Assembly (NCBI GenBank): GCA_949451605.1
Contig: CASTSB010000005.1
Span: 1,096 to 65,095 of the forward strand
Direction of reading: 5' to 3'
Length of the DNA: 64,000 bases
From: an uncultured Bacilli bacterium
GTDB lineage: Bacteria; Bacillota_I; Bacilli_A; RF39; UBA660
Within the stretch, counting starts at the first letter, position 1; the number at the start of each line of letters is the position of its first letter. The translations under genes and the position numbers were made by a program. The notes below the pieces were generated by a model. It worked only from the letters and a program-made list of their open reading frames with translations, did not search any database and was not told the DNA's origin. Shown one piece after another: positions 33,116 to 43,575 of this stretch.

Positions 33116-33240
33116 TATAAAAGAGTTCCTTTCTTCAATTTAAGAAGACATAATACTAAAAATTATTCAAAATGCTTAATAAAATGAAAAAAACTCTATT
33201 TTATACAAAAATATATTATAATAATTTAAAGGTGAAGAAA

Positions 33241-33807
33241 ATGAATAAATTTTTCGAATCAAAATTTACATTAATAACAATAATCTTATTATGCTTTTTA
33301 AGTAATTGGTATAAAGATAATATATCCTTAATATTTTATATCATAATTAGATTAATATTAATTATTTTATGCATGTATTTTTTTTACAAATTATATAAAA
33401 AAAGTTTTACATTAAAAAACAAAATCATCACATCTTTTATATTTATTATTACTTTATTTCTATTTTTTTATGATTTTAGATTAACAAAAACTAAAATTGA
33501 ACTAAATATTTTTAAAAATCAAAGAAATATAATTATTCAAAAAATTAAAAACAATGAATTTAAATATTATTATAAGAACAATATTAAATTGTCCAAATAT
33601 AAATATACTTCTAATGATGGTGAGATTTATGTATATAAAAATGATACTGAAGGACAAGTTATTTCCTTTTGGATATATCGTGGTTTAATGAGTGATTCAA
33701 TTCAACTAATTTATACAACAGATAAAGATTTATTAGAAAAAAATATAAAAAACATTAATAAAAGCATTAAGTTAAATAAAAATTGGTTTTATATTACAAC
33801 TAAATAA
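33241..33807 (+). CDS. small polytopic membrane protein with Y/K-rich tail
   Basis: RBS aaaggtgaag. Three hydrophobic helices, then a soluble tail. Confidence 0.4.
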   Translation: MNKFFESKFTLITIILLCFLSNWYKDNISLIFYIIIRLILIILCMYFFYKLYKKSFTLKNKIITSFIFIITLFLFFYDFRLTKTKIELNIFKNQRNIIIQKIKNNEFKYYYKNNIKLSKYKYTSNDGEIYVYKNDTEGQVISFWIYRGLMSDSIQLIYTTDKDLLEKNIKNINKSIKLNKNWFYITTK

Positions 33808-33883
33808 TAAGTAAAGCAAATAATTATAAAAAGAAAAAGTGAATCTATATATACAGATTCACTTCGAAATTTAGTATTTCATT

Positions 33884-34351
33884 TTAATCTAAACTCTTAT
33901 AAAAATCTTCAATATGTCTAAAAAACTCTTTATTTTTAAAATCGGACTCAGTTATATTATTATCCTCAGCAAACATATAAAGAAATTCCATCCATGAATA
34001 ATCTTTTGCTTTAATAGCCTTTTCTGTAGCCTCTTCAAAGCTACTAACCAAAACATCTCTAGGTAAAGTAGATAATAATTCCATAATTACATCTGCTCCA
34101 GGCCAATTAATATCTTGTAACCAATAATACAATTCAGGTATAACATCTTTCACTCTAGGATAGCCTCTTAACAATAGTACTCTAGCTTTATAATGCCATC
34201 TCCAATTAGCACGCTCATCCATTATGAACTTTCTGTTATCATAATCTTTAGCATTTACCAATAATTTAACATTTTCTTCTTGTATTTTCTCAGGCAATAC
34301 AGAATACATTATATCATTATAAGCTTTATCAGCTGCTTTCATTTTTATCAC
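33884..34351 (-). CDS. cytoplasmic immunity-like protein, paralog A
   Basis: 155 aa. ARVLLLRGYPRVKDVIPELYYWLQDINWPGADVIMELLSTLPRDVLVSSFEEA shared with 34400..34855. Confidence 0.5.
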   Translation of the reverse strand: MIKMKAADKAYNDIMYSVLPEKIQEENVKLLVNAKDYDNRKFIMDERANWRWHYKARVLLLRGYPRVKDVIPELYYWLQDINWPGADVIMELLSTLPRDVLVSSFEEATEKAIKAKDYSWMEFLYMFAEDNNITESDFKNKEFFRHIEDFYKSLD

Positions 34352-34399
34352 CTCTTTTTATAAAAAGTATTAAATTTTTGAAATATATTCTACAAAATA

Positions 34400-34855
34400 T
34401 TAATTTAAACTAGTATAATAATCTTCAATAATCTTAAAAAGCTCTTTATTTTCAAATTCAGATTCTATTATATTATTATTTTCCGCAAATTCATAAAGAA
34501 AAAGCATCCACTCTTCATCATTCTGCTTAACAGCCCTACCCACTGCTTCTTCAAAACTGCTAACCAAAACATCTCTAGGAAATGTAGATAACAACTTCAT
34601 AATCTCATCTGCTCCAGGCCAATTAATATCTTGTAACCAATTATACAATTCAGGTATTACATTCTTTACTTTAGGATACCCTCTTAAAAGTAGTACATTG
34701 GCTCTATATCTCCAATAAAACTTTGAACCATTATTAAGAAACATATCGTTTCCATAATTTTCAGAGTTAGCTAATATTTTTACATTTTTTTCTAATTGTT
34801 TTTGAGTAAGTCTACTTGTATTAATTTCTAAATAAGCCTTTTCTTCTTTGGTCAT
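34400..34855 (-). CDS. cytoplasmic immunity-like protein, paralog B
   Basis: 151 aa. ANVLLLRGYPKVKNVIPELYNWLQDINWPGADEIMKLLSTFPRDVLVSSFEEA; high DNA identity to paralog A in the core. Confidence 0.5.
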   Translation of the reverse strand: MTKEEKAYLEINTSRLTQKQLEKNVKILANSENYGNDMFLNNGSKFYWRYRANVLLLRGYPKVKNVIPELYNWLQDINWPGADEIMKLLSTFPRDVLVSSFEEAVGRAVKQNDEEWMLFLYEFAENNNIIESEFENKELFKIIEDYYTSLN

Positions 34856-34871
34856 TAATTTACCTCACTTT

Positions 34872-35126
34872 TTACCATGCTTCCCACTTATGTATTACTT
34901 CATTTGTTTTATCATTGAATGCTGCAAATAAGAATTCCCCATGATTACAATAATCTGAATTATCACAATAGCTTTCAATAAAATATATTAAATACTCATT
35001 TTCATTTTTACCATAGGAAGGTGTATTAGAAAACAAACCATTAGGTAATCCTAGTTTGTCATCATAATCTTGCAGTTTACTAACACTCTTAGATTTATAT
35101 TTTTTATTAAATTTATCGATTGTCAT
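34872..35126 (-). CDS. small hypothetical protein
   Basis: 84-aa ORF with Cys/His cluster CDNSDYCNHGEF. Confidence 0.3.
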   Translation of the reverse strand: MTIDKFNKKYKSKSVSKLQDYDDKLGLPNGLFSNTPSYGKNENEYLIYFIESYCDNSDYCNHGEFLFAAFNDKTNEVIHKWEAW

Positions 35127-35165
35127 ATTTTTATCAACATAATATAAAGCTAATTCTGATCCACT

Positions 35166-35606
35166 CTACAAAGCCCCTGGAGAAAAAATAAAGTGAACTT
35201 TTTCCACAGAATTTGGAATTTCGTCAGGAAAAGCTTTCAAATATGAACCACGAACAATGTCTTTATAATATTTTACATCAGTAATTGGATTTTCAGCCAA
35301 TTCAAATGAACATATAAACATCCCACTTAAATAATAAGCTGGCAAAAAGAAAGTCAAAATAAAAGATATTATTGATAACAAAATCTGCGACTTCCGTATG
35401 CTACATTTAAAACAACAAATTATCAAAAGTTGAAAAAATATTAAAAATGGTAAATAAGCAAATATCAAGATTTTTACTCTTGTATTAGTTGAATAATATT
35501 TACTTAAACAAAAAAATATACAACCAATAGCTAATGATATAATTGTTAAAGCTAAAAGAAAAATAAATAATATTACTTTTTTTCTATTCCATTCTTCTTT
35601 TTTCAA
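35166..35606 (-). CDS. four-TM small membrane protein (possible membrane immunity protein)
   Basis: 146 aa, four hydrophobic helices rich in Cys/Phe. Confidence 0.4.
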   Translation of the reverse strand: MKKEEWNRKKVILFIFLLALTIISLAIGCIFFCLSKYYSTNTRVKILIFAYLPFLIFFQLLIICCFKCSIRKSQILLSIISFILTFFLPAYYLSGMFICSFELAENPITDVKYYKDIVRGSYLKAFPDEIPNSVEKVHFIFSPGAL

Positions 35607-35738
35607 AATAGTTCACTTCCGAATACATTAACAATATAATTATACCACAACTTTATGCTTATACAATTTGAATACATAATTTTGTTAAAATATTCTTTTT
35701 CAATATTACATCTGATATAATAAAATTAGGTGATTAAA

Positions 35739-36803
35739 ATGTGTAAAACTTTAACTAATAAAAAACACAAAAATATTGATTATTCAAATCTTTCATATGA
35801 AAATTCAAATTTCATATTTGATGAGTTATACAATGACTTCAAAAAAAATCCATTAAGCTTAAAAATTATTAAAGGATATATAATAATATTTATAATTAAT
35901 TTTTTAACTTATTATCTTATAAATCTAATAATAAAACAGAAACTGGAATTATCAATTACCATTATCATTTTTATTTCTATCTTAAGTTTATTTTTTACAG
36001 TATTTTTTAAAATTAAGGGACTTAAAAACACTTCAAAAAATTCTAATGCAAAATTTTACTTTTATGATGATTTTATTTTATTAAAAAGAAAAAAAGACAT
36101 TGAATATATTTTTTTAAATGAAATAAGTACTATATCCGAATCAGAAAAATACTTTAATCTTTACAAAAATGGAAATAGATATGTTTTAATAAAAACCAAA
36201 TTAGAACAAAAATTAATAGACTATCTAAGACAATTAAAACAAAATATAAAAGAACAAAAAAAAGATAAATATTATAGTTACAAAAATTTTATTAAAAATT
36301 ATAAGAATGATTTAATATTATATTCTAAAAATGAAATAAATGAAGAAGTATTAAATAAATACTATAAAATAAAGAAAGTAAATAAAGATTTATTTATAAA
36401 TAGTTTGTTTGTTAATTTATTTAGTATTCATATTTTATTATTAATCATATACAAATTTATATTTAAATCTTACAATTTTAATATAAAAATTTATCTTTTT
36501 ATAATATTCGAAATACTTTTATTAACAATAATATTTCAAAAACACTATAAAACAAGAGATATGAAAACAATTATAAAAGATAAATTTATAGATACTTATT
36601 TGTATAACAACTTTATACTAGTAAATTTCAAAAATAAAATAATAAGATATAATTATAGTGATATTAAATATATATGTGAAAAAGATAATTTATTAGTCAT
36701 CAAATTTAAAGAATACAATTCTCAACCAATATTTTTTAATAAAAACACATTTAAAAAAGACCAATTTGACTTTTTAAATAGTAAAAAAATACATACTAAA
36801 TAA
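35739..36803 (+). CDS. membrane protein with internally duplicated TM-pair plus PH-like (YcxB/bPH-like) module
   Basis: RBS aggtga. Two repeats of (two TM helices + FYFYDDFILLKRKK... / LYNNFILVNFKNK...). Convergent with the RHS gene. Confidence 0.4.
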   Translation: MCKTLTNKKHKNIDYSNLSYENSNFIFDELYNDFKKNPLSLKIIKGYIIIFIINFLTYYLINLIIKQKLELSITIIIFISILSLFFTVFFKIKGLKNTSKNSNAKFYFYDDFILLKRKKDIEYIFLNEISTISESEKYFNLYKNGNRYVLIKTKLEQKLIDYLRQLKQNIKEQKKDKYYSYKNFIKNYKNDLILYSKNEINEEVLNKYYKIKKVNKDLFINSLFVNLFSIHILLLIIYKFIFKSYNFNIKIYLFIIFEILLLTIIFQKHYKTRDMKTIIKDKFIDTYLYNNFILVNFKNKIIRYNYSDIKYICEKDNLLVIKFKEYNSQPIFFNKNTFKKDQFDFLNSKKIHTK

Positions 36804-36871
36804 TATAGTATATATTTTTCAAATAATAATTTTGAATAAATAATTTAATTAAGTTTCTGTTATAACATAAT

Positions 36872-39800
36872 TTAAGAAAACAGTAGTTTTAAACCATCTG
36901 TAAACAATTTTAAAGAGTCACCAAGTGCTTTTATTGCAGTTGCAGATGTTTTTATGTAAGGATATGCAACTATAGTTAGTGGTACAAGAGCCACCGAAAA
37001 CAATGCAACCTCTTTTTTTATATTTATTCTTGTATAACCACTTACACTTTCATTATCTCCTGTCTCTATTTCAACATCTACTCCAAAATAAATATAGTCA
37101 TCATCAAAATCAAAAGTATTTTTGACAGTAGTGTCTCCTGTTGTTGAAGAAATATAAAAATCTGCAGAAGTTGGACCAACATCATAACCATAATTACCAA
37201 AATTATGATCTGCTGAAATATCGCAAGTACCAAATACGGTGGAAATAGAACCTTTATTTGTTTGAGTAACTATTTTTTTATTCTTTGAAACACCAGAAGT
37301 TTTACTTACAGCGCCTGATGGGGTAGAATTGTTACAAAAACTAGCAGTCGAACTTTTTTTATTTTTCTTTTTTGCCTGTTCTTTTACTTTTTTCTTAGTA
37401 CTTTTAGAAAATAGATTAACAATAGCTGAAAAAAGATTGTTCAAAAATTTTCCATTTCCAGTTTTATCATAATTGACTATAGGATTATTACTTACATAAG
37501 CATACAAATTATAAGATAAAATATCTTCATTTGCTCCTAATACAACATCAGGAGAAATGAATCTTCCTAATTCAGGATTATAATATCTATGATTTAAATA
37601 ATACAGACCTGTTTCTAAATCATAATAATAGCTTCTATATCTAAATGGATTAATATTTCCTATATGATTTAGATCATTTGAAATATCATTACCATTCTCG
37701 CCTTTAATAGATAATAATTTTCCCCAACTATCATATATATAGGTTACAATCTTATTACCCTCTTCATCAAAAATTCCTATAATATCATTATGTAGATTTT
37801 TTAAATAATAAAATATTTTATTATTATATTTAAAACCGATCAAACCTTCAGCATCATATAGATAATAAATTACTGTATCATTTCTATCTTCATATACAAT
37901 TTCATCATTTAATGTATAATATTTTGTCTCCAAACCATTATAAATTTTAGATTTTCTAATACCATTTTCATCATATTTAAATTTTAAATTTTTATTTTCT
38001 ATAATATTTCTTATTTCAGATAATTCAACTCCATTTTTCCATAAGAAACTATTATTATTAAACGATACAATGTTTCCTAATTGATCATAAGTGATATCAT
38101 TATCATTATAAGAAGTTAATTGATCTTCCCAATTTTCATTATTATAATTGTAATTAGAAATTTTTAATACTTCATTTGTTTGAAGATTTTTTTCTATTTT
38201 TTTAAGCAAATTCCCTGTATTATCATATAAATATTCAATTTGCGTATTTAAATCATAATTTTTTTCTTCTATTAATTCATTATAGTTATCATAATCATAC
38301 TGTTTTATCAAGCTTTCATTTAAATATATATTTTTAATATTATATACTTCATCATAATCATATTTATAAATATCATTATTAACTTGATATGAATTTATTA
38401 GATTACTGGTTCTTTTTCCATTTGAAACAAAATTACTTGCTGTATTTATAATGTTATTAATATTTTTACCAACATTTCTATTTAAGCTATCATAATTGTA
38501 ATTTACCTTTACTTCACCAAATAAAGTTGTTACTAATTTTTCTCCATCAAAATTATTTATTTGCTTATTAATATTATTATTGTATTTATATTCTTTGGTT
38601 GTTATAAAGTTTTCTGTATCATAATCATATATTACTTTAAAACTATCATTTTTATATAAGTGAAGTCTATTATTTTTATCATAATTAAACTTAGAAACAG
38701 AATCATTTGAAATGATTTTCGAAATATTACCATTAGTATCATAATAGAACTTATATTTATCATTTTCTTTTTTTATTTCATTAACCCTTTCAAAATCATC
38801 ATACAACATTTCGATATATTGATTATTTCCATATGTAATTTTCTTTAAATTTCCATTATTAGTTTCATATTCATTTTTAGTTAAAATGTTATTATTTAAG
38901 TAAATTGTATCTATATTCATAAAATTATCATAAGTTATCAAATACTCTTTATTTCCCTGAGTAATATTAGTTAATAAATTATTAGATCCATAAGTATAGT
39001 TAATTTCCGAATTATTTTGTTTAACTTTAGTACATTGACCTTTAGTATTATACTCATACTTTGTTTCTATACCTCTAGGATCTATTACTCTATTTATTTT
39101 ACCAGTCAAATTATTAACTTCATAAGATGTTTTTCTAAATATTGAATCAACTTTATCACTAATAAATCTTTCGTCTTCAGTATATTTAGTATTATTTTCT
39201 ATAAATAAGCTTTCTGGAATTTCTAAATAAAAATCTATATTTGTAAGATTATCACTATACTTATTTAATTTTACAGAATCGTCTTCTAAAACATTTAAAT
39301 ATCTAACAATATTTTTTTCTACATCATCAAACTTGATATTATAAGAACCGTCATCATTTTTTTCTAAATAAAATAAATTATTTATATTAACTTCATTTAA
39401 TATTAAAAATTCATTACTACTAGAAATACTATAATTATCTTTTAATCCATACTTAATTTTGTATCTGTCTTCATGTTTTTCTAAAAACCATATATTATTA
39501 CTACAATCACTCTCTTCCATTACAAGATTATTTAATAATGCTTTTAAATATTTTTTAGTACCTTTAAGTCTTATTTTATAAAATCCTTCTTTTATTTCAT
39601 TAACATACTTTTTAGAAATTCTATTTGCTATTGGATTTCCATTCTTATAAGTAATGCTATTTGATAAACCATTTGAGTATATTGTATTTAACAATCGATT
39701 TTTTTTATTATAATCATATTCATATATTTGACTTTTACCTAAAGTATTTGTTATACGAGTTATTTGATTTTTCTTATCATAATTTAGAGTATCTTTATTT

Positions 39801-42800
39801 TCTGATTGATCTTCAATAGATATTAAATTATTACTATCATCATAATGATACTCTTCCCTTGTAACATCTTTATAAAAAGATAGATTAGTCATATAAAAGT
39901 TATTACCACTTCCATAATTATGAAAAACAATTATAATTGATTTAAAATTTTCAATTGACTTTTCAGTATGAACAAAATGTTGCCAAGAATCACCATTTGT
40001 TATAGGTAAAGTATAAGATAATATGCAATGTCCATTATCTTCATCATATGGTTCATAAAAAATTGTTACATTACTTCCTACATTAGGGGCATATGGAATA
40101 GTTGCTTCATTTTTAAACCAAAATGATAACGTATATGTATCTCCTTCTTTTCCCTTAATATTAAATTTCTTTTCAATTGAAGTACCTAGATTATAATCCA
40201 TTTTTACTTTTAATGCTTTTGTATTATTTATATCAACAACACTTATAAAATCAGATGGATTTACATCATTATCATTTATACTTGCCTTACAAGCCCAACC
40301 TGCCAGTCCTTCCTTAAAATCAGAATTTTCTATCATATTATAATAATTTACAACTCCGCTTTTTTCTAATTGTATATCATCTATATTAATAGAACCAACT
40401 TCTAACAAAGTAACTTTTATTTTCAATTCACTAACTGCATCTTCCCCATAATAAATTGTTACATCTCCTCTTTCAAAATTACTTGATGAATCTAAAATTT
40501 CTTCACTACTTATTTCTTCACCATTATTATTTATATAACTAAGAGATATTTGTATAGGAATATCGGATTTTATGTATCCACTAAAAGTATAATAATTTTC
40601 TTTTTCCAGTGTTATTGTTTGCTCTAAAGATTTATTTGCAATTGATGACTCTACTTTTAAACTTCTAAGACCAGTATTAACATTGCTCATATCAAATGAT
40701 GTTATTATGCCATTTTCATAAGTAAAGAGATTTTCATCAGATTCAAAGCTAGTATTTTTTAAATAATTTTTTATGTATCTATTTGGTATCATTTCTGAAG
40801 TTAAACAGTTTTTATTATTGTATGATTTTTCAATAGAATAAGCATCATCTATTTGATTTCTTCCTTTTAGAATACTTCTTGAAGTAACATTTCCATATTC
40901 ATTAAAAGCTACAGTTTCCAATATTCCTTTATTATTAATTATTGAAGTTTCATATAAACTATATTCTAATTTATAAATATTACCATAAAAATCATTTGTA
41001 CCAATTTCCATTATTTTTTTTATTTTATATGGAATATTTTCATAATATTCATACTCTATTTTTAATCCACTAATATCTTTAATAGAACTTAGAATGTCCT
41101 TTTCTTTATATTCAAATATAGTACATCCATTTACTGTTTCTATATTTATTAATAAATCATTTAAAAAATTCATTTTAGTAACTGTATTATCTGAACTGGT
41201 AACTATAATGTTATCACCATAATATTGAATATTTATTTCATTATTATTTTTGTCCACAATTTTATTGATAGAATGATCTTCATTAAATTCAATTCTAATT
41301 GTATTATTATCTATATCTCTGATATCTGTTAAAAAATACTTATTAGCATTCTTTGAAAATATCATTTCATTATTATTTGCATCAATCAACTTTAATTGAC
41401 CATTTAATTCTTCAATTATAAGATCTAATCCATCTTCATCATAATAAAAATTATCAAGCTCAACATCATTATTAAAAATATTTGATTCTTTTTTATTGAA
41501 ATAATGAGTAGTTCCATCTTCATCTATATATTGATAGCTATTTTCAATTTTTTCTATTACTTGTTCTAAATTCAATTTATAACCTTTTCCAAAAAAAGTT
41601 TTATTATTAAGAACAACATCATTGGTATTGTAAATAAGCTTTAATGAAGCTGGCATTACCCCACCTATAGTTTTTCCTAAATCAAAAATAGTAGTTAAAT
41701 TTCCTGTATGGGTATTTACATAAGCTTTTCCATTGGAAAATGATTGTTCTTTATAATCCCAATAGCTCTCTATTCCATTATTATTTCTATATTTAATTAT
41801 AAAAACAGGCTTTGGATTACCACTTATAGTATTATCTTTTGAAAAGAATAAAGGATAATTATCGTTAATATAATTTTCATTACAAGATTTTATCATAATT
41901 CCATAATTTGGAGTATCCTCATACCATTTCTTCACTAATCCTGTGATATTCATTTCTATCGGATATGCATCGATAACATTATTAACCATAGTTGATCTAT
42001 AAGTAGGCCCTATATATTCAACTCTAGGATCATATTTATTATGCAAATTATCCCAACTTGCATCACTTTCAGACCAGTTAGATGTCATTCTATGTATTTC
42101 TACTAAATGCTCATATGGATTATCAGAATTATTTGATCCAATACAAGGAGTCAAATTTATAGATGCATCAATTATTTCATATCCTGTTCCAATTATAGGC
42201 AAGTCAAATTTTATTAAAGTTCTATTGACCCTATTTTGTCCATTTACCTTTTCTACTCCAGCTACTAAATATCCTAATTTTCCCTTATCATCATTACTAT
42301 CTCCTGGATAAATATAAGTATCAGTTAAAGTAATGTTCTGACTTTCATTTGTAATAGTTGGATCTACATATACAGGATAAACTACATCCTCCCTACTTAG
42401 CCAATTCTTATCAAGTATTACTTTTATTTGATATTTATCATCAACTAGTAACAACTTATAATTAACATTAGTACATCTCATACCAGATGCATCTTCCATA
42501 AAAGGTTTATCAATAGTAAAAATTACCATCTCATCATTTTTCGCAACAATTAAATCATCTTCTTGTACTAAATCCAAATTAGTATCTACAACAAATGTAA
42601 ATTCGCTATAATTATCATTTTTAAGTATCAATGTTTCTTTAATTTTATTAGATAATGTTTGATATTCTATATCGACACCATCATAAATATTAGTGTATAA
42701 AATATCTTTAAATATTTTTGACTTAGTATGCTTCTTTAATATTTCTGAATCATTCGCATATTTTAGTTTTAAATCAATATAATACTTTCCCTTTGCCATT

Positions 42801-43027
42801 TTAACTAAAGAATTTTTACCATTACTTTTAAAAGTAACTCTATAATCATTCTTCTTATTTCTATATATATTTTTCCTTTTTTCTAAAGTATTATCTATTT
42901 CTTCATATTTACCATTTTTTAGATAATGAATATCACTATCATAAATTTTAGCAAGAATAGTTCCATCTTTTTGTAAAAAGTGTTTTTCTCTAGGTTTTCT
43001 TTTTTCAATTAATTCAATTTCATCCAC
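36872..43027 (-). CDS. RHS/YD-repeat polymorphic toxin (2051 aa) with unrecognised 192-aa C-terminal domain
   Basis: GTG start. DNRLRE-like domain (GQNRVNRTLIKFDL), two CBM4/9-like modules, many YD repeats (YDxxGNL/YxYDxxNRL), and RHS core RYYNPELGRFISPDVV...LYAYVSNNPIVNYDKTGNG. The CT has no recognisable motif. Confidence 0.85.
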   Translation of the reverse strand: MDEIELIEKRKPREKHFLQKDGTILAKIYDSDIHYLKNGKYEEIDNTLEKRKNIYRNKKNDYRVTFKSNGKNSLVKMAKGKYYIDLKLKYANDSEILKKHTKSKIFKDILYTNIYDGVDIEYQTLSNKIKETLILKNDNYSEFTFVVDTNLDLVQEDDLIVAKNDEMVIFTIDKPFMEDASGMRCTNVNYKLLLVDDKYQIKVILDKNWLSREDVVYPVYVDPTITNESQNITLTDTYIYPGDSNDDKGKLGYLVAGVEKVNGQNRVNRTLIKFDLPIIGTGYEIIDASINLTPCIGSNNSDNPYEHLVEIHRMTSNWSESDASWDNLHNKYDPRVEYIGPTYRSTMVNNVIDAYPIEMNITGLVKKWYEDTPNYGIMIKSCNENYINDNYPLFFSKDNTISGNPKPVFIIKYRNNNGIESYWDYKEQSFSNGKAYVNTHTGNLTTIFDLGKTIGGVMPASLKLIYNTNDVVLNNKTFFGKGYKLNLEQVIEKIENSYQYIDEDGTTHYFNKKESNIFNNDVELDNFYYDEDGLDLIIEELNGQLKLIDANNNEMIFSKNANKYFLTDIRDIDNNTIRIEFNEDHSINKIVDKNNNEINIQYYGDNIIVTSSDNTVTKMNFLNDLLINIETVNGCTIFEYKEKDILSSIKDISGLKIEYEYYENIPYKIKKIMEIGTNDFYGNIYKLEYSLYETSIINNKGILETVAFNEYGNVTSRSILKGRNQIDDAYSIEKSYNNKNCLTSEMIPNRYIKNYLKNTSFESDENLFTYENGIITSFDMSNVNTGLRSLKVESSIANKSLEQTITLEKENYYTFSGYIKSDIPIQISLSYINNNGEEISSEEILDSSSNFERGDVTIYYGEDAVSELKIKVTLLEVGSINIDDIQLEKSGVVNYYNMIENSDFKEGLAGWACKASINDNDVNPSDFISVVDINNTKALKVKMDYNLGTSIEKKFNIKGKEGDTYTLSFWFKNEATIPYAPNVGSNVTIFYEPYDEDNGHCILSYTLPITNGDSWQHFVHTEKSIENFKSIIIVFHNYGSGNNFYMTNLSFYKDVTREEYHYDDSNNLISIEDQSENKDTLNYDKKNQITRITNTLGKSQIYEYDYNKKNRLLNTIYSNGLSNSITYKNGNPIANRISKKYVNEIKEGFYKIRLKGTKKYLKALLNNLVMEESDCSNNIWFLEKHEDRYKIKYGLKDNYSISSSNEFLILNEVNINNLFYLEKNDDGSYNIKFDDVEKNIVRYLNVLEDDSVKLNKYSDNLTNIDFYLEIPESLFIENNTKYTEDERFISDKVDSIFRKTSYEVNNLTGKINRVIDPRGIETKYEYNTKGQCTKVKQNNSEINYTYGSNNLLTNITQGNKEYLITYDNFMNIDTIYLNNNILTKNEYETNNGNLKKITYGNNQYIEMLYDDFERVNEIKKENDKYKFYYDTNGNISKIISNDSVSKFNYDKNNRLHLYKNDSFKVIYDYDTENFITTKEYKYNNNINKQINNFDGEKLVTTLFGEVKVNYNYDSLNRNVGKNINNIINTASNFVSNGKRTSNLINSYQVNNDIYKYDYDEVYNIKNIYLNESLIKQYDYDNYNELIEEKNYDLNTQIEYLYDNTGNLLKKIEKNLQTNEVLKISNYNYNNENWEDQLTSYNDNDITYDQLGNIVSFNNNSFLWKNGVELSEIRNIIENKNLKFKYDENGIRKSKIYNGLETKYYTLNDEIVYEDRNDTVIYYLYDAEGLIGFKYNNKIFYYLKNLHNDIIGIFDEEGNKIVTYIYDSWGKLLSIKGENGNDISNDLNHIGNINPFRYRSYYYDLETGLYYLNHRYYNPELGRFISPDVVLGANEDILSYNLYAYVSNNPIVNYDKTGNGKFLNNLFSAIVNLFSKSTKKKVKEQAKKKNKKSSTASFCNNSTPSGAVSKTSGVSKNKKIVTQTNKGSISTVFGTCDISADHNFGNYGYDVGPTSADFYISSTTGDTTVKNTFDFDDDYIYFGVDVEIETGDNESVSGYTRINIKKEVALFSVALVPLTIVAYPYIKTSATAIKALGDSLKLFTDGLKLLFS

Positions 43028-43035
43028 ATTATCAC

Positions 43036-43575
43036 CTACTTAACTCTTTTCCACATATTAACACTTAAATATGGTGGCATATGATCAATAGGTTGTTCAT
43101 TTGTTAATTCTGCATCAGCTAAGCAAATATTAGCCCAACCATTCTGCATGCTATTATTAGTACAAGAATGTTTTCCAGATACTATAAGACGTTCTACAAC
43201 ACGTGGTGGAAGATTTTCATTTCTAATAATATGGCTAACTCTACCTCCACTAGTACCTTCTTTATAGTCATCACTTGATGCTAGGAGGAATTTTCCATTT
43301 ATGGCTTCCCACTCTCCTCCAAAATAAACATTTGGATTAGTATTTTGAACACTAATATAAATTGAACCTACAGGATAAATCATATTTAATATGGCATCAC
43401 TTGCTAAAGATAAACTATTACAAGTTAAACTATTAACTACCAAATTTCCTTGATCATCCAATTCAAATTTGTTATCCAAAGAAGTAATACAAGATACATT
43501 TAAATTGTTTACTTCCAAGTTTAAATTATCGCCTTCTTTTGTGAAAGCATTCTCAATATTTTCTAATTGAGTCAT
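43036..43575 (-). CDS. phage-tail-collar-domain (MdpB-like) protein
   Basis: IYPVGSIYISVQNTNPNVYFGGEWEAINGKFLLASSDDYKEGTSGGRVSHIIRNENLPP follows the Collar-domain pattern. Its TAG stop lies 8 nt before the RHS start. Confidence 0.55.
   Translation of the reverse strand: MTQLENIENAFTKEGDNLNLEVNNLNVSCITSLDNKFELDDQGNLVVNSLTCNSLSLASDAILNMIYPVGSIYISVQNTNPNVYFGGEWEAINGKFLLASSDDYKEGTSGGRVSHIIRNENLPPRVVERLIVSGKHSCTNNSMQNGWANICLADAELTNEQPIDHMPPYLSVNMWKRVK

Follow-up and report, generated by a model that had tools for sequence, protein, structure and literature searches.

The window analyzed here, a 64,000-nucleotide stretch of the genome of an uncultured Bacilli bacterium (lineage RF39; UBA660; contig CASTSB010000005.1, positions 1,096 to 65,095), carries on its minus strand a gene for a rearrangement hotspot (RHS) protein. 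The C-terminal (CT) region of this protein is well supported as the cassette of a Gram-positive-type RHS polymorphic toxin, a toxin-immunity module. The CT is a swappable toxin cassette, replaced in sister strains by a different toxin domain, and its pairing with a convergent gene for a membrane protein with YcxB-like domains, the putative immunity gene, is conserved. As to how the toxin would work, we favor nonenzymatic action at the membrane of the target cell, and we put the probability of this at roughly 55%.

Anatomy of the CT domain

The original prediction, made from the sequence alone, described an unrecognized 192-amino-acid (aa) domain following the RHS core, and this is borne out. 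Minus-strand positions 36872..37450 translate exactly to 192 aa and a TAA stop (RHS residues 1860-2051), and the peptides quoted, KKKVKEQAKKKNKK (the linker), FCNNSTPSG..., EVALFSVALVPLTIVAYPYI, and TSATAIKALGDSLKLFTDGLKLLFS, are all found in the translation. Dx(x)G is the boundary motif of RHS-associated cores, with the variable domain lying directly C-terminal to it. Here the core terminates at ...NNPIVNYDKTG, and because the TIGR03696 match stops at aa 1857, the post-core region comprises aa 1858-2051 (36875..37456). The solved Rhs shells (8h8a, 7q97, and that of Tse5, 8cp6) align to the RHS protein up to aa ∼1857-1865 at most. The 192-aa extent is a real C-terminal stretch, but it includes a pre-toxin element consisting of an amphipathic helix and a Lys-rich linker, and the family-specific domain has 160 aa (Table 1).

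An AlphaFold2 (AF2) model of the CT, built on an alignment of eight sequences (A1) and having a mean predicted local distance difference test (pLDDT) score of 63, predicts an up-and-down antiparallel beta region, of which the C-terminal ∼70 aa are the conserved core; AF2 with the single sequence was uninformative (pLDDT 38). The conserved core is acidic, with a net charge of about -9, and the stretch preceding it carries +14. The hydrophobic helix and amphipathic tail that had been pointed out earlier are both recovered, the former being of transmembrane (TM) grade by its Kyte-Doolittle 19-residue mean (KD19; Table 1), and the amphipathic terminus spans the final 18-23 residues. The predicted combination of a beta core and a helical hairpin differs from the helical membrane toxins described so far.

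CT relatives and searches for known families

Relatives of the CT were found in eight clusters (E 2e-29 to 3e-4) in a HMMER pass over 1.84 billion cluster representatives. At least four are tips of RHS proteins with the architecture of the window protein: P0006 is a 2059-aa RHS protein with the same N terminus and architecture, P0002 is an RHS fragment and the family member closest to the window CT, P0004 is an in-frame RHS tip with a miscalled start, and P0003 is an RHS tip separated by a frameshift. P0005, P0007, and P0008/P0009 are free-standing and unattached to RHS. In P0007 (L009 3961-4890), the CT is joined to an unrelated 150-aa N-terminal region with no Pfam match, and the convergent YcxB-like partner is retained; this is either a different carrier for the CT or a recombination product. 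A word-indexed search of 5.8 billion proteins returned only P0001, a fragment sharing the linker, with the CT as query, and only P0008 and P0009 with profile A1. No CT relatives were found in 185,579 species genomes, JGI metagenomes, or IMG/VR.

Mean pairwise identity in the family alignment is 36% in the beta core and 21% in the tail, and between the window CT and P0002 it is 61% and 17%, respectively. A hydrophobic segment nevertheless follows directly after the beta core, at the same position, in all eight members, and is of TM grade in seven (KD19 ∼1.9-2.2), with that of P0004 peaking at 1.25; the tail appears to conserve its hydrophobic character and not its sequence. The only invariant columns of A1 are G, T, K, and Y, with near-invariant D/E and R/K positions, and there is consequently no obvious catalytic set of His, Asp, Glu, or Cys residues.

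Searches for known families agree with the absence of nuclease, deaminase, ADP-ribosyltransferase, and peptidase motifs stated in the original prediction. Pfam and NCBIfam scans of the window CT and of the family members gave no family, and no match at E ≤1 common to members; a PHROGs scan of the CT gave no match; and profile A1 found no significant chain among PDB sequences (best E 0.13, NifU). Foldseek comparison with PDB gave nothing significant (best E 7e-3, TM-scores of 0.24-0.30, and rmsd >10 Å), and with viral models added none was better than E 4e-3, with TM-scores of ≤0.31; profile and structure searches alike provide no confident match to a toxin family. The top structural matches are a generic mix of START/Bet v 1 proteins, outer membrane protein barrels, and avidin, which share a common beta meander. 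A START/Bet v 1 helix-grip fold was rejected, the superposition being insignificant and the likeness that of a generic beta meander only. Inspection by eye also led us to reject an ADP-ribosyltransferase reading of the SST and E-I-E strings of the window sequence, the second Glu and the remaining motif being unconserved in A1, and a glycine-zipper reading of the tail, the member sequences showing no consistent small-xxx-small pattern.

Exchange of the CT cassette

The exact protein encoded by the partner gene is present on 22 contigs. L015-L017 and L020 represent the same locus as the window. In L018, L019, L021, and L022, the full-length main RHS protein ends in an Ntox44 domain (Pfam E 4e-15 on the L018 tip), and downstream lies an orphan cassette of ∼2.4 kb of rhs 3′ end, the present CT, and the YcxB-like gene; positions 1-4707 of L018 correspond to window positions 34612..39318 at 97% nucleotide identity. 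Replacement by Ntox44, with displaced copies of the CT and its partner, is the behavior of a swappable toxin cassette. Displacement that leaves truncated rhs-CT/immunity copies as orphans is a classic feature of both rhs and wapA loci (PMC12704120). Compared with the window CT, the orphan copy has six synonymous and two nonsynonymous codon changes which, with the eight homologues, show the CT to be real coding sequence and not a chance reading frame. The two RHS tip configurations occur among near-identical strains of the species, from different metagenome samples.

In L001, a 99.7%-identical RHS protein diverges exactly after the Lys-rich linker (window 37353/37354) into an unrelated tail of ∼70 aa. 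The unrelated tail and a GC-rich hairpin occupy L001 4760-5039, and a 14-nucleotide deletion splits the RHS gene; the junction could reflect true recombination, or else a chimeric assembly at the A-rich linker. This tail is preceded by the same amphipathic helix and linker as in the window, and the Ntox44 tip of L018 by an equivalent hydrophobic helix and Lys-rich linker. Because it precedes other tip types, the element belongs to the RHS lineage rather than to the CT family, and it is probably generic in the lineage, serving in delivery or in membrane docking and translocation.

The membrane protein encoded at 33172..33807 is homologous to the product of the gene convergent to the Ntox44-tipped RHS gene (L018 4759-5313; Table 1), and is therefore likely to be an orphan immunity protein, directed against a toxin that the window strain does not carry.

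The convergent YcxB-like partner

The gene at 35730..36803 is convergent with the RHS gene, with 68 nucleotides between the two stop codons. Comparable genes, encoding a TM hairpin with a YcxB-like domain, lie 30-260 nucleotides after the CT stop in six of seven informative lineages (the window, L003-L005, L006, L008, L009, and L012-L014; L010/L011 are without downstream DNA and were left out). The partners are collinear homologues connected by a chain of BLASTP matches with E values of 2e-8 to 1e-3, including window-L006 (3e-8; reciprocal 2e-8), window-L009 (2e-7), L009-L003 (5e-7), L003-L014 (3e-6), and L006-L008 (2e-5). They are 22-30% identical to one another, a divergence that matches that of the CT tail and not that of the core. 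Pfam YcxB (PF14317) is the sole family that they match, with no bPH_2 (PHb2) match for any of them; we take YcxB to be a member of the PH-like clan. A homologue 58% identical to the window partner (P0013) passes the YcxB cutoff (31.6 bits, 1.4e-7), and the full-length L008 partner (P0014; 17.8 bits, 2.8e-3) is a minimal unit of two TM segments and one YcxB-like domain. The type of tip covaries with the adjacent gene, a YcxB-like gene standing beside the present CT and a different convergent gene beside Ntox44. On these comparative grounds 35730..36803 is the putative immunity gene for the CT. A literature search for YcxB or DUF5071 proteins as immunity proteins found nothing relevant.

The immunity partner had earlier been sought in a small protein encoded at 35166..35606, with the paralogs at 33884..34855 as further candidates, and neither suggestion is supported. 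The 35166..35606 product has three hydrophobic blocks and not the four TM segments proposed, and tblastn (E ≤1) found no homologue of it in the loci of other CT lineages, including loci of 15-22 kb; the paralogs are DUF5071 proteins, also without homologues in those loci. If 35166..35606 did encode the immunity protein, 35730..36803 would be an unrelated insertion. The former is a small membrane protein gene on the RHS strand, and is intact and identical in all 10 same-species loci, including those of the orphan-cassette strains; however, nucleotide identity is 100% over the entire flank, and the conservation of this gene therefore says nothing about selection. Moreover, the 1.07-kb gene on the opposite strand stands between it and RHS, and it heads a run of four minus-strand genes that appears to be a separate unit: in a consensus scan, the gap at 35607..35729 has promoter-like matches (weak, shuffled sequence being expected to give 32 against the 39 of the scanned region), and a single terminator-like site was found, at 33865..33836. 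We consider an assignment of immunity to 35166..35606 to be very unlikely. The run (33884..35606, minus strand), which ends at the terminator-like site, comprises this 146-aa membrane open reading frame (ORF), an 84-aa ORF, and the two DUF5071 paralogs, and could be an island of orphan immunity-type genes.

Proposed mode of action and alternatives

The nonenzymatic reading follows from the lack of a catalytic set and of an enzymatic family match for any member. The membrane reading follows from the retention of the hydrophobic segment in every member in spite of the low tail identity, and from the precedents of Tse5-CT/Tsi5 (PMC9637101) and of the ionophores belonging to systems for contact-dependent growth inhibition (CDI) (PMC11630599). 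We infer that a fragment of ∼194 aa, consisting of the helix/linker part and the 160-aa domain, would be released after the RHS core (...NYDKTG), presumably by autoproteolysis. Once delivered, the beta core would dock at the target envelope or membrane, and the C-terminal helical hairpin would insert into the cytoplasmic membrane, probably as an oligomer, and dissipate the membrane potential, its toxicity being that of a pore or an ionophore. The convergent membrane protein would protect the producer by binding the hydrophobic tail within the bilayer. Membrane-directed, nonenzymatic action, for which the original prediction had argued from the appearance of the tail, is the best reading of the present data as well, although it is still one drawn from sequence.

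Several observations weigh against it. Two helices are few for a pore, so that oligomerization has to be assumed; the conserved beta core could itself carry the activity; and the AF2 model is of moderate confidence only (mean pLDDT 63), with pLDDT <50 in the tail. The Ntox44 tip, too, has a membrane protein as its candidate partner, which makes a membrane partner weak evidence for a membrane target. As for the window partner, its YcxB match lies just below the gathering cutoff (E 8e-5 and 22.7 bits, in two stretches, against 23.3 bits), and a convergent orientation is unusual among immunity genes. In the seventh informative lineage (L007), a helix-turn-helix gene occupies the partner position, and the CT is frameshifted from RHS. 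Finally, a YcxB-like partner gene is found without an adjacent RHS or CT in L025 (2366-3250; P0012); its product is near P0010 in its N-terminal half and has diverged in its TM and C-terminal half, and it looks like an orphan or diversifying immunity gene.

Other modes of action can be read from the same features. The CT might be a membrane-anchored effector in which the beta core is active, either as an enzyme or as a tight binder of an envelope target, for example a lipid-linked cell-wall precursor or membrane protein, and the tail is a tether. The core is the best conserved part (36% identity versus 21% in the tail), with its invariant T, K, Y, and G and near-invariant D/E and R/K residues, and it is the only part that AF2 models confidently; yet it matches no enzymatic or binding family (Pfam, NCBIfam, and PDB sequences), its fold matches are insignificant (TM-scores of ≤0.31), and its invariant residues do not form a typical catalytic constellation, and we regard such an effector as rather unlikely. 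A toxin acting in the cytoplasm, merely carried across the target membrane by its hydrophobic tail and pre-toxin helix, draws on the similar helix and Lys-rich linker that precede the Pfam-recognized Ntox44 domain in sister strains, which suggest a generic translocation device in the lineage. The hydrophobic tail, however, is specific to the CT family and present in all of its members, there is no catalytic signature, and the partner is an integral membrane protein; a cytoplasmic site of action seems quite unlikely.

The CT might also be no toxin, but a C-terminal anchor or structural domain holding the RHS protein in the membrane of its producer. A C-terminal hydrophobic helix could serve as a tail anchor, and the RHS protein is without a signal peptide, but the CT lies beyond the RHS core boundary, in the position of toxins, it is exchanged for Ntox44 in sister strains and persists there as an orphan cassette with its partner, and free-standing copies of it occur. 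We consider an anchor to be extremely improbable, and a nonenzymatic toxin acting at the target membrane is the reading that we retain.

Comparison with characterized systems

Systems of this kind are already known, both RHS polymorphic toxins with cognate immunity genes and RHS tips that attack membranes. The CT of Tse5 (RhsP1) of Pseudomonas aeruginosa is an RHS-encapsulated tip of ∼150 aa beyond the core aspartyl-protease motif, with no predicted enzymatic function and with helices of both TM and amphipathic type; spontaneous insertion into membranes, where it forms cation-selective pores, depolarizes cells, and immunity is provided by Tsi5, a membrane protein for which two TM regions are predicted (PMC9637101). 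The window CT is similar in having a hydrophobic helix (KD19 2.01), an amphipathic end, and a partner with TM hairpins. However, no sequence relationship was detected, the match to 8cp6_B ending at aa 1857 in a chain that may not include the Tse5 tip. The large beta core of the window tip is also absent from the description of Tse5-CT, which mentions TM and amphipathic helices; a Gram-negative type VI secretion system (T6SS) delivers Tse5, whereas the window RHS protein carries a DNRLRE domain, lacks a signal peptide, and has no T6SS in its vicinity; and the window partner is YcxB-like and convergent.

The CDI ionophores (CdiA-CT/CdiI) combine an N-terminal entry domain with a C-terminal membrane-spanning helical part, and their immunity proteins are polymorphic membrane proteins (∼30% identity), the toxin varying at immunity-facing positions (PMC11630599). 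The window tip is likewise in two parts, and its tail and the partner are likewise fast-diverging. The CDI ionophores differ in their predicted five-helix bundles, against about two helices in the window tail, and in having a CdiA rather than an RHS scaffold, and no homology was detected.

Among the WapA-type RHS toxins of Bacillota, WapA of Streptococcus suis combines a DNRLRE domain and an RHS shell with a pre-toxin segment and a variable toxin, and its loci have an adjacent immunity gene and orphan cassettes (PMC12704120). The window RHS protein shares the DNRLRE domain, the shell, the pre-toxin segment, and the variable tip, and the species shows orphan cassettes. A Sec signal peptide and LysM repeats for wall binding are present in WapA, the characterized tips of which are nuclease-like (PMC12704120), whereas the window RHS protein is without a signal peptide, and has a conserved tail-fiber-like upstream partner and convergent partner genes.

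The window partner can be compared with YdbS, which has two TM segments and one PH-type domain, and YdbT, which has six and three; the YdbS/YdbT and DdE/DdF genes lie beside membrane-active leaderless bacteriocins and are implicated in handling them (PMC8657885). With four TM segments and two YcxB-like domains, the window partner has similar repeats of a hairpin-domain unit. DdE/DdF, however, act in small-peptide export (PMC8657885) and not in neutralizing an RHS tip, and the window partner has no bPH_2 match.

The tip family, its predicted beta-core-plus-hairpin build, and its conserved convergent YcxB-like partner appear to be new as far as the searched libraries and literature show. A broader proposal is that they represent a new class of membrane-inserting interbacterial toxin, neutralized in the bilayer by a YcxB-like partner and carried on a signal-peptide-less DNRLRE-RHS protein that uses a tail-fiber-like partner instead of Sec, T6SS, or type VII secretion system (T7SS) delivery; we offer this tentatively, as somewhat doubtful.

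The RHS gene and its neighborhood

In the RHS protein (ORF 36872..43027), which lacks an N-terminal signal peptide, aa 236-408 form a DNRLRE domain (NCBIfam DNRLRE_dom, 6e-21), and there are YD/RHS repeats (NCBIfam YD_repeat; Pfam RHS_repeat, 8e-17). The ORF has no in-frame TGA, which points to the standard bacterial code. A query with the RHS core across genomes matched only a 25%-identical Nitrospirota RHS protein. Searches of the window for further RHS or CT fragments found none, and an Rfam scan of the window gave no matches. The G+C content of the window is ∼22%, and the RHS neighbors are housekeeping genes (recX, ffh, ftsY, lgt, prsA for a PrsA-type foldase, and suf), which places the locus on the chromosome.

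No T6SS, T7SS, or contractile-injection genes were found near the RHS gene. A gene for a protein like a phage tail fiber or baseplate tip (43036..43575) stops 8 nucleotides upstream of the RHS start, and a 42%-identical gene holds the same position in L003/L004/L005, before the P0006 RHS gene; it is a conserved upstream partner of RHS genes of this type. As the RHS protein has no signal peptide and none of these secretion systems is nearby, the tail-fiber-like product may be its targeting or delivery partner.

Table 1. Positions and properties of features at the RHS locus
Feature	Coordinates	Strand	Basis and remarks
211-aa membrane protein, likely orphan immunity protein	33172..33807	+	59% identity, E 8e-65, to L018 4759-5313
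146-aa ORF, original immunity candidate	35166..35606	-	TTG start; three hydrophobic blocks
357-aa membrane protein, best immunity candidate	35730..36803	+	(TM hairpin + YcxB-like domain) x2; four TM-grade blocks
RHS/YD polymorphic-toxin gene	36872..43027	-	ORF; 2051-aa product
Family-specific CT domain, 160 aa	36875..37354	-	Eight homologues, alignment A1; no library match
C-terminal amphipathic helix ATAIKALGDSLKLFTDGLKLLFS	36875..36943	-	Helical moment 0.47-0.55; AF2 helix at low confidence
TM-grade hydrophobic helix VALFSVALVPLTIVAYPYI	36953..37009	-	KD19 2.01
Predicted eight-strand up-and-down antiparallel beta region	37016..37309	-	AF2 with A1; strands at domain residues 16-113; block pLDDT 61-80
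Pre-toxin element: amphipathic helix GKFLNNLFSAIVNLFSKS and Lys-rich linker	37355..37456	-	Helical moment 0.53; net charge +8
RHS-associated core (plug and autoproteolysis region)	37457..37735	-	TIGR03696 aa 1765-1857, model 1-75/76, Rhs_assc_core 4e-19; translation checked
179-aa protein like phage tail-fiber/baseplate tip	43036..43575	-	Pfam Gp10_C 2e-17 (T4 Gp10 C-terminal); PHROG tail proteins

Implications

RHS tips are a reservoir of new antibacterial activities, and the tip described here is without a homologue in the curated domain and solved-structure libraries that were searched and belongs to a very rare family. The comparative data move the immunity assignment to 35730..36803 and suggest a function for YcxB-like membrane proteins; if the membrane-inserting class proposed above is real, immunity to a membrane toxin would be the first function for this uncharacterized family. 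The locus also shows live turnover of cassettes between co-occurring strains, and the two types, one with an Ntox44 tip and an orphan CT and the other with the present CT and an orphan immunity-like gene, constitute a tractable natural system of strain antagonism in a low-G+C bacterium.

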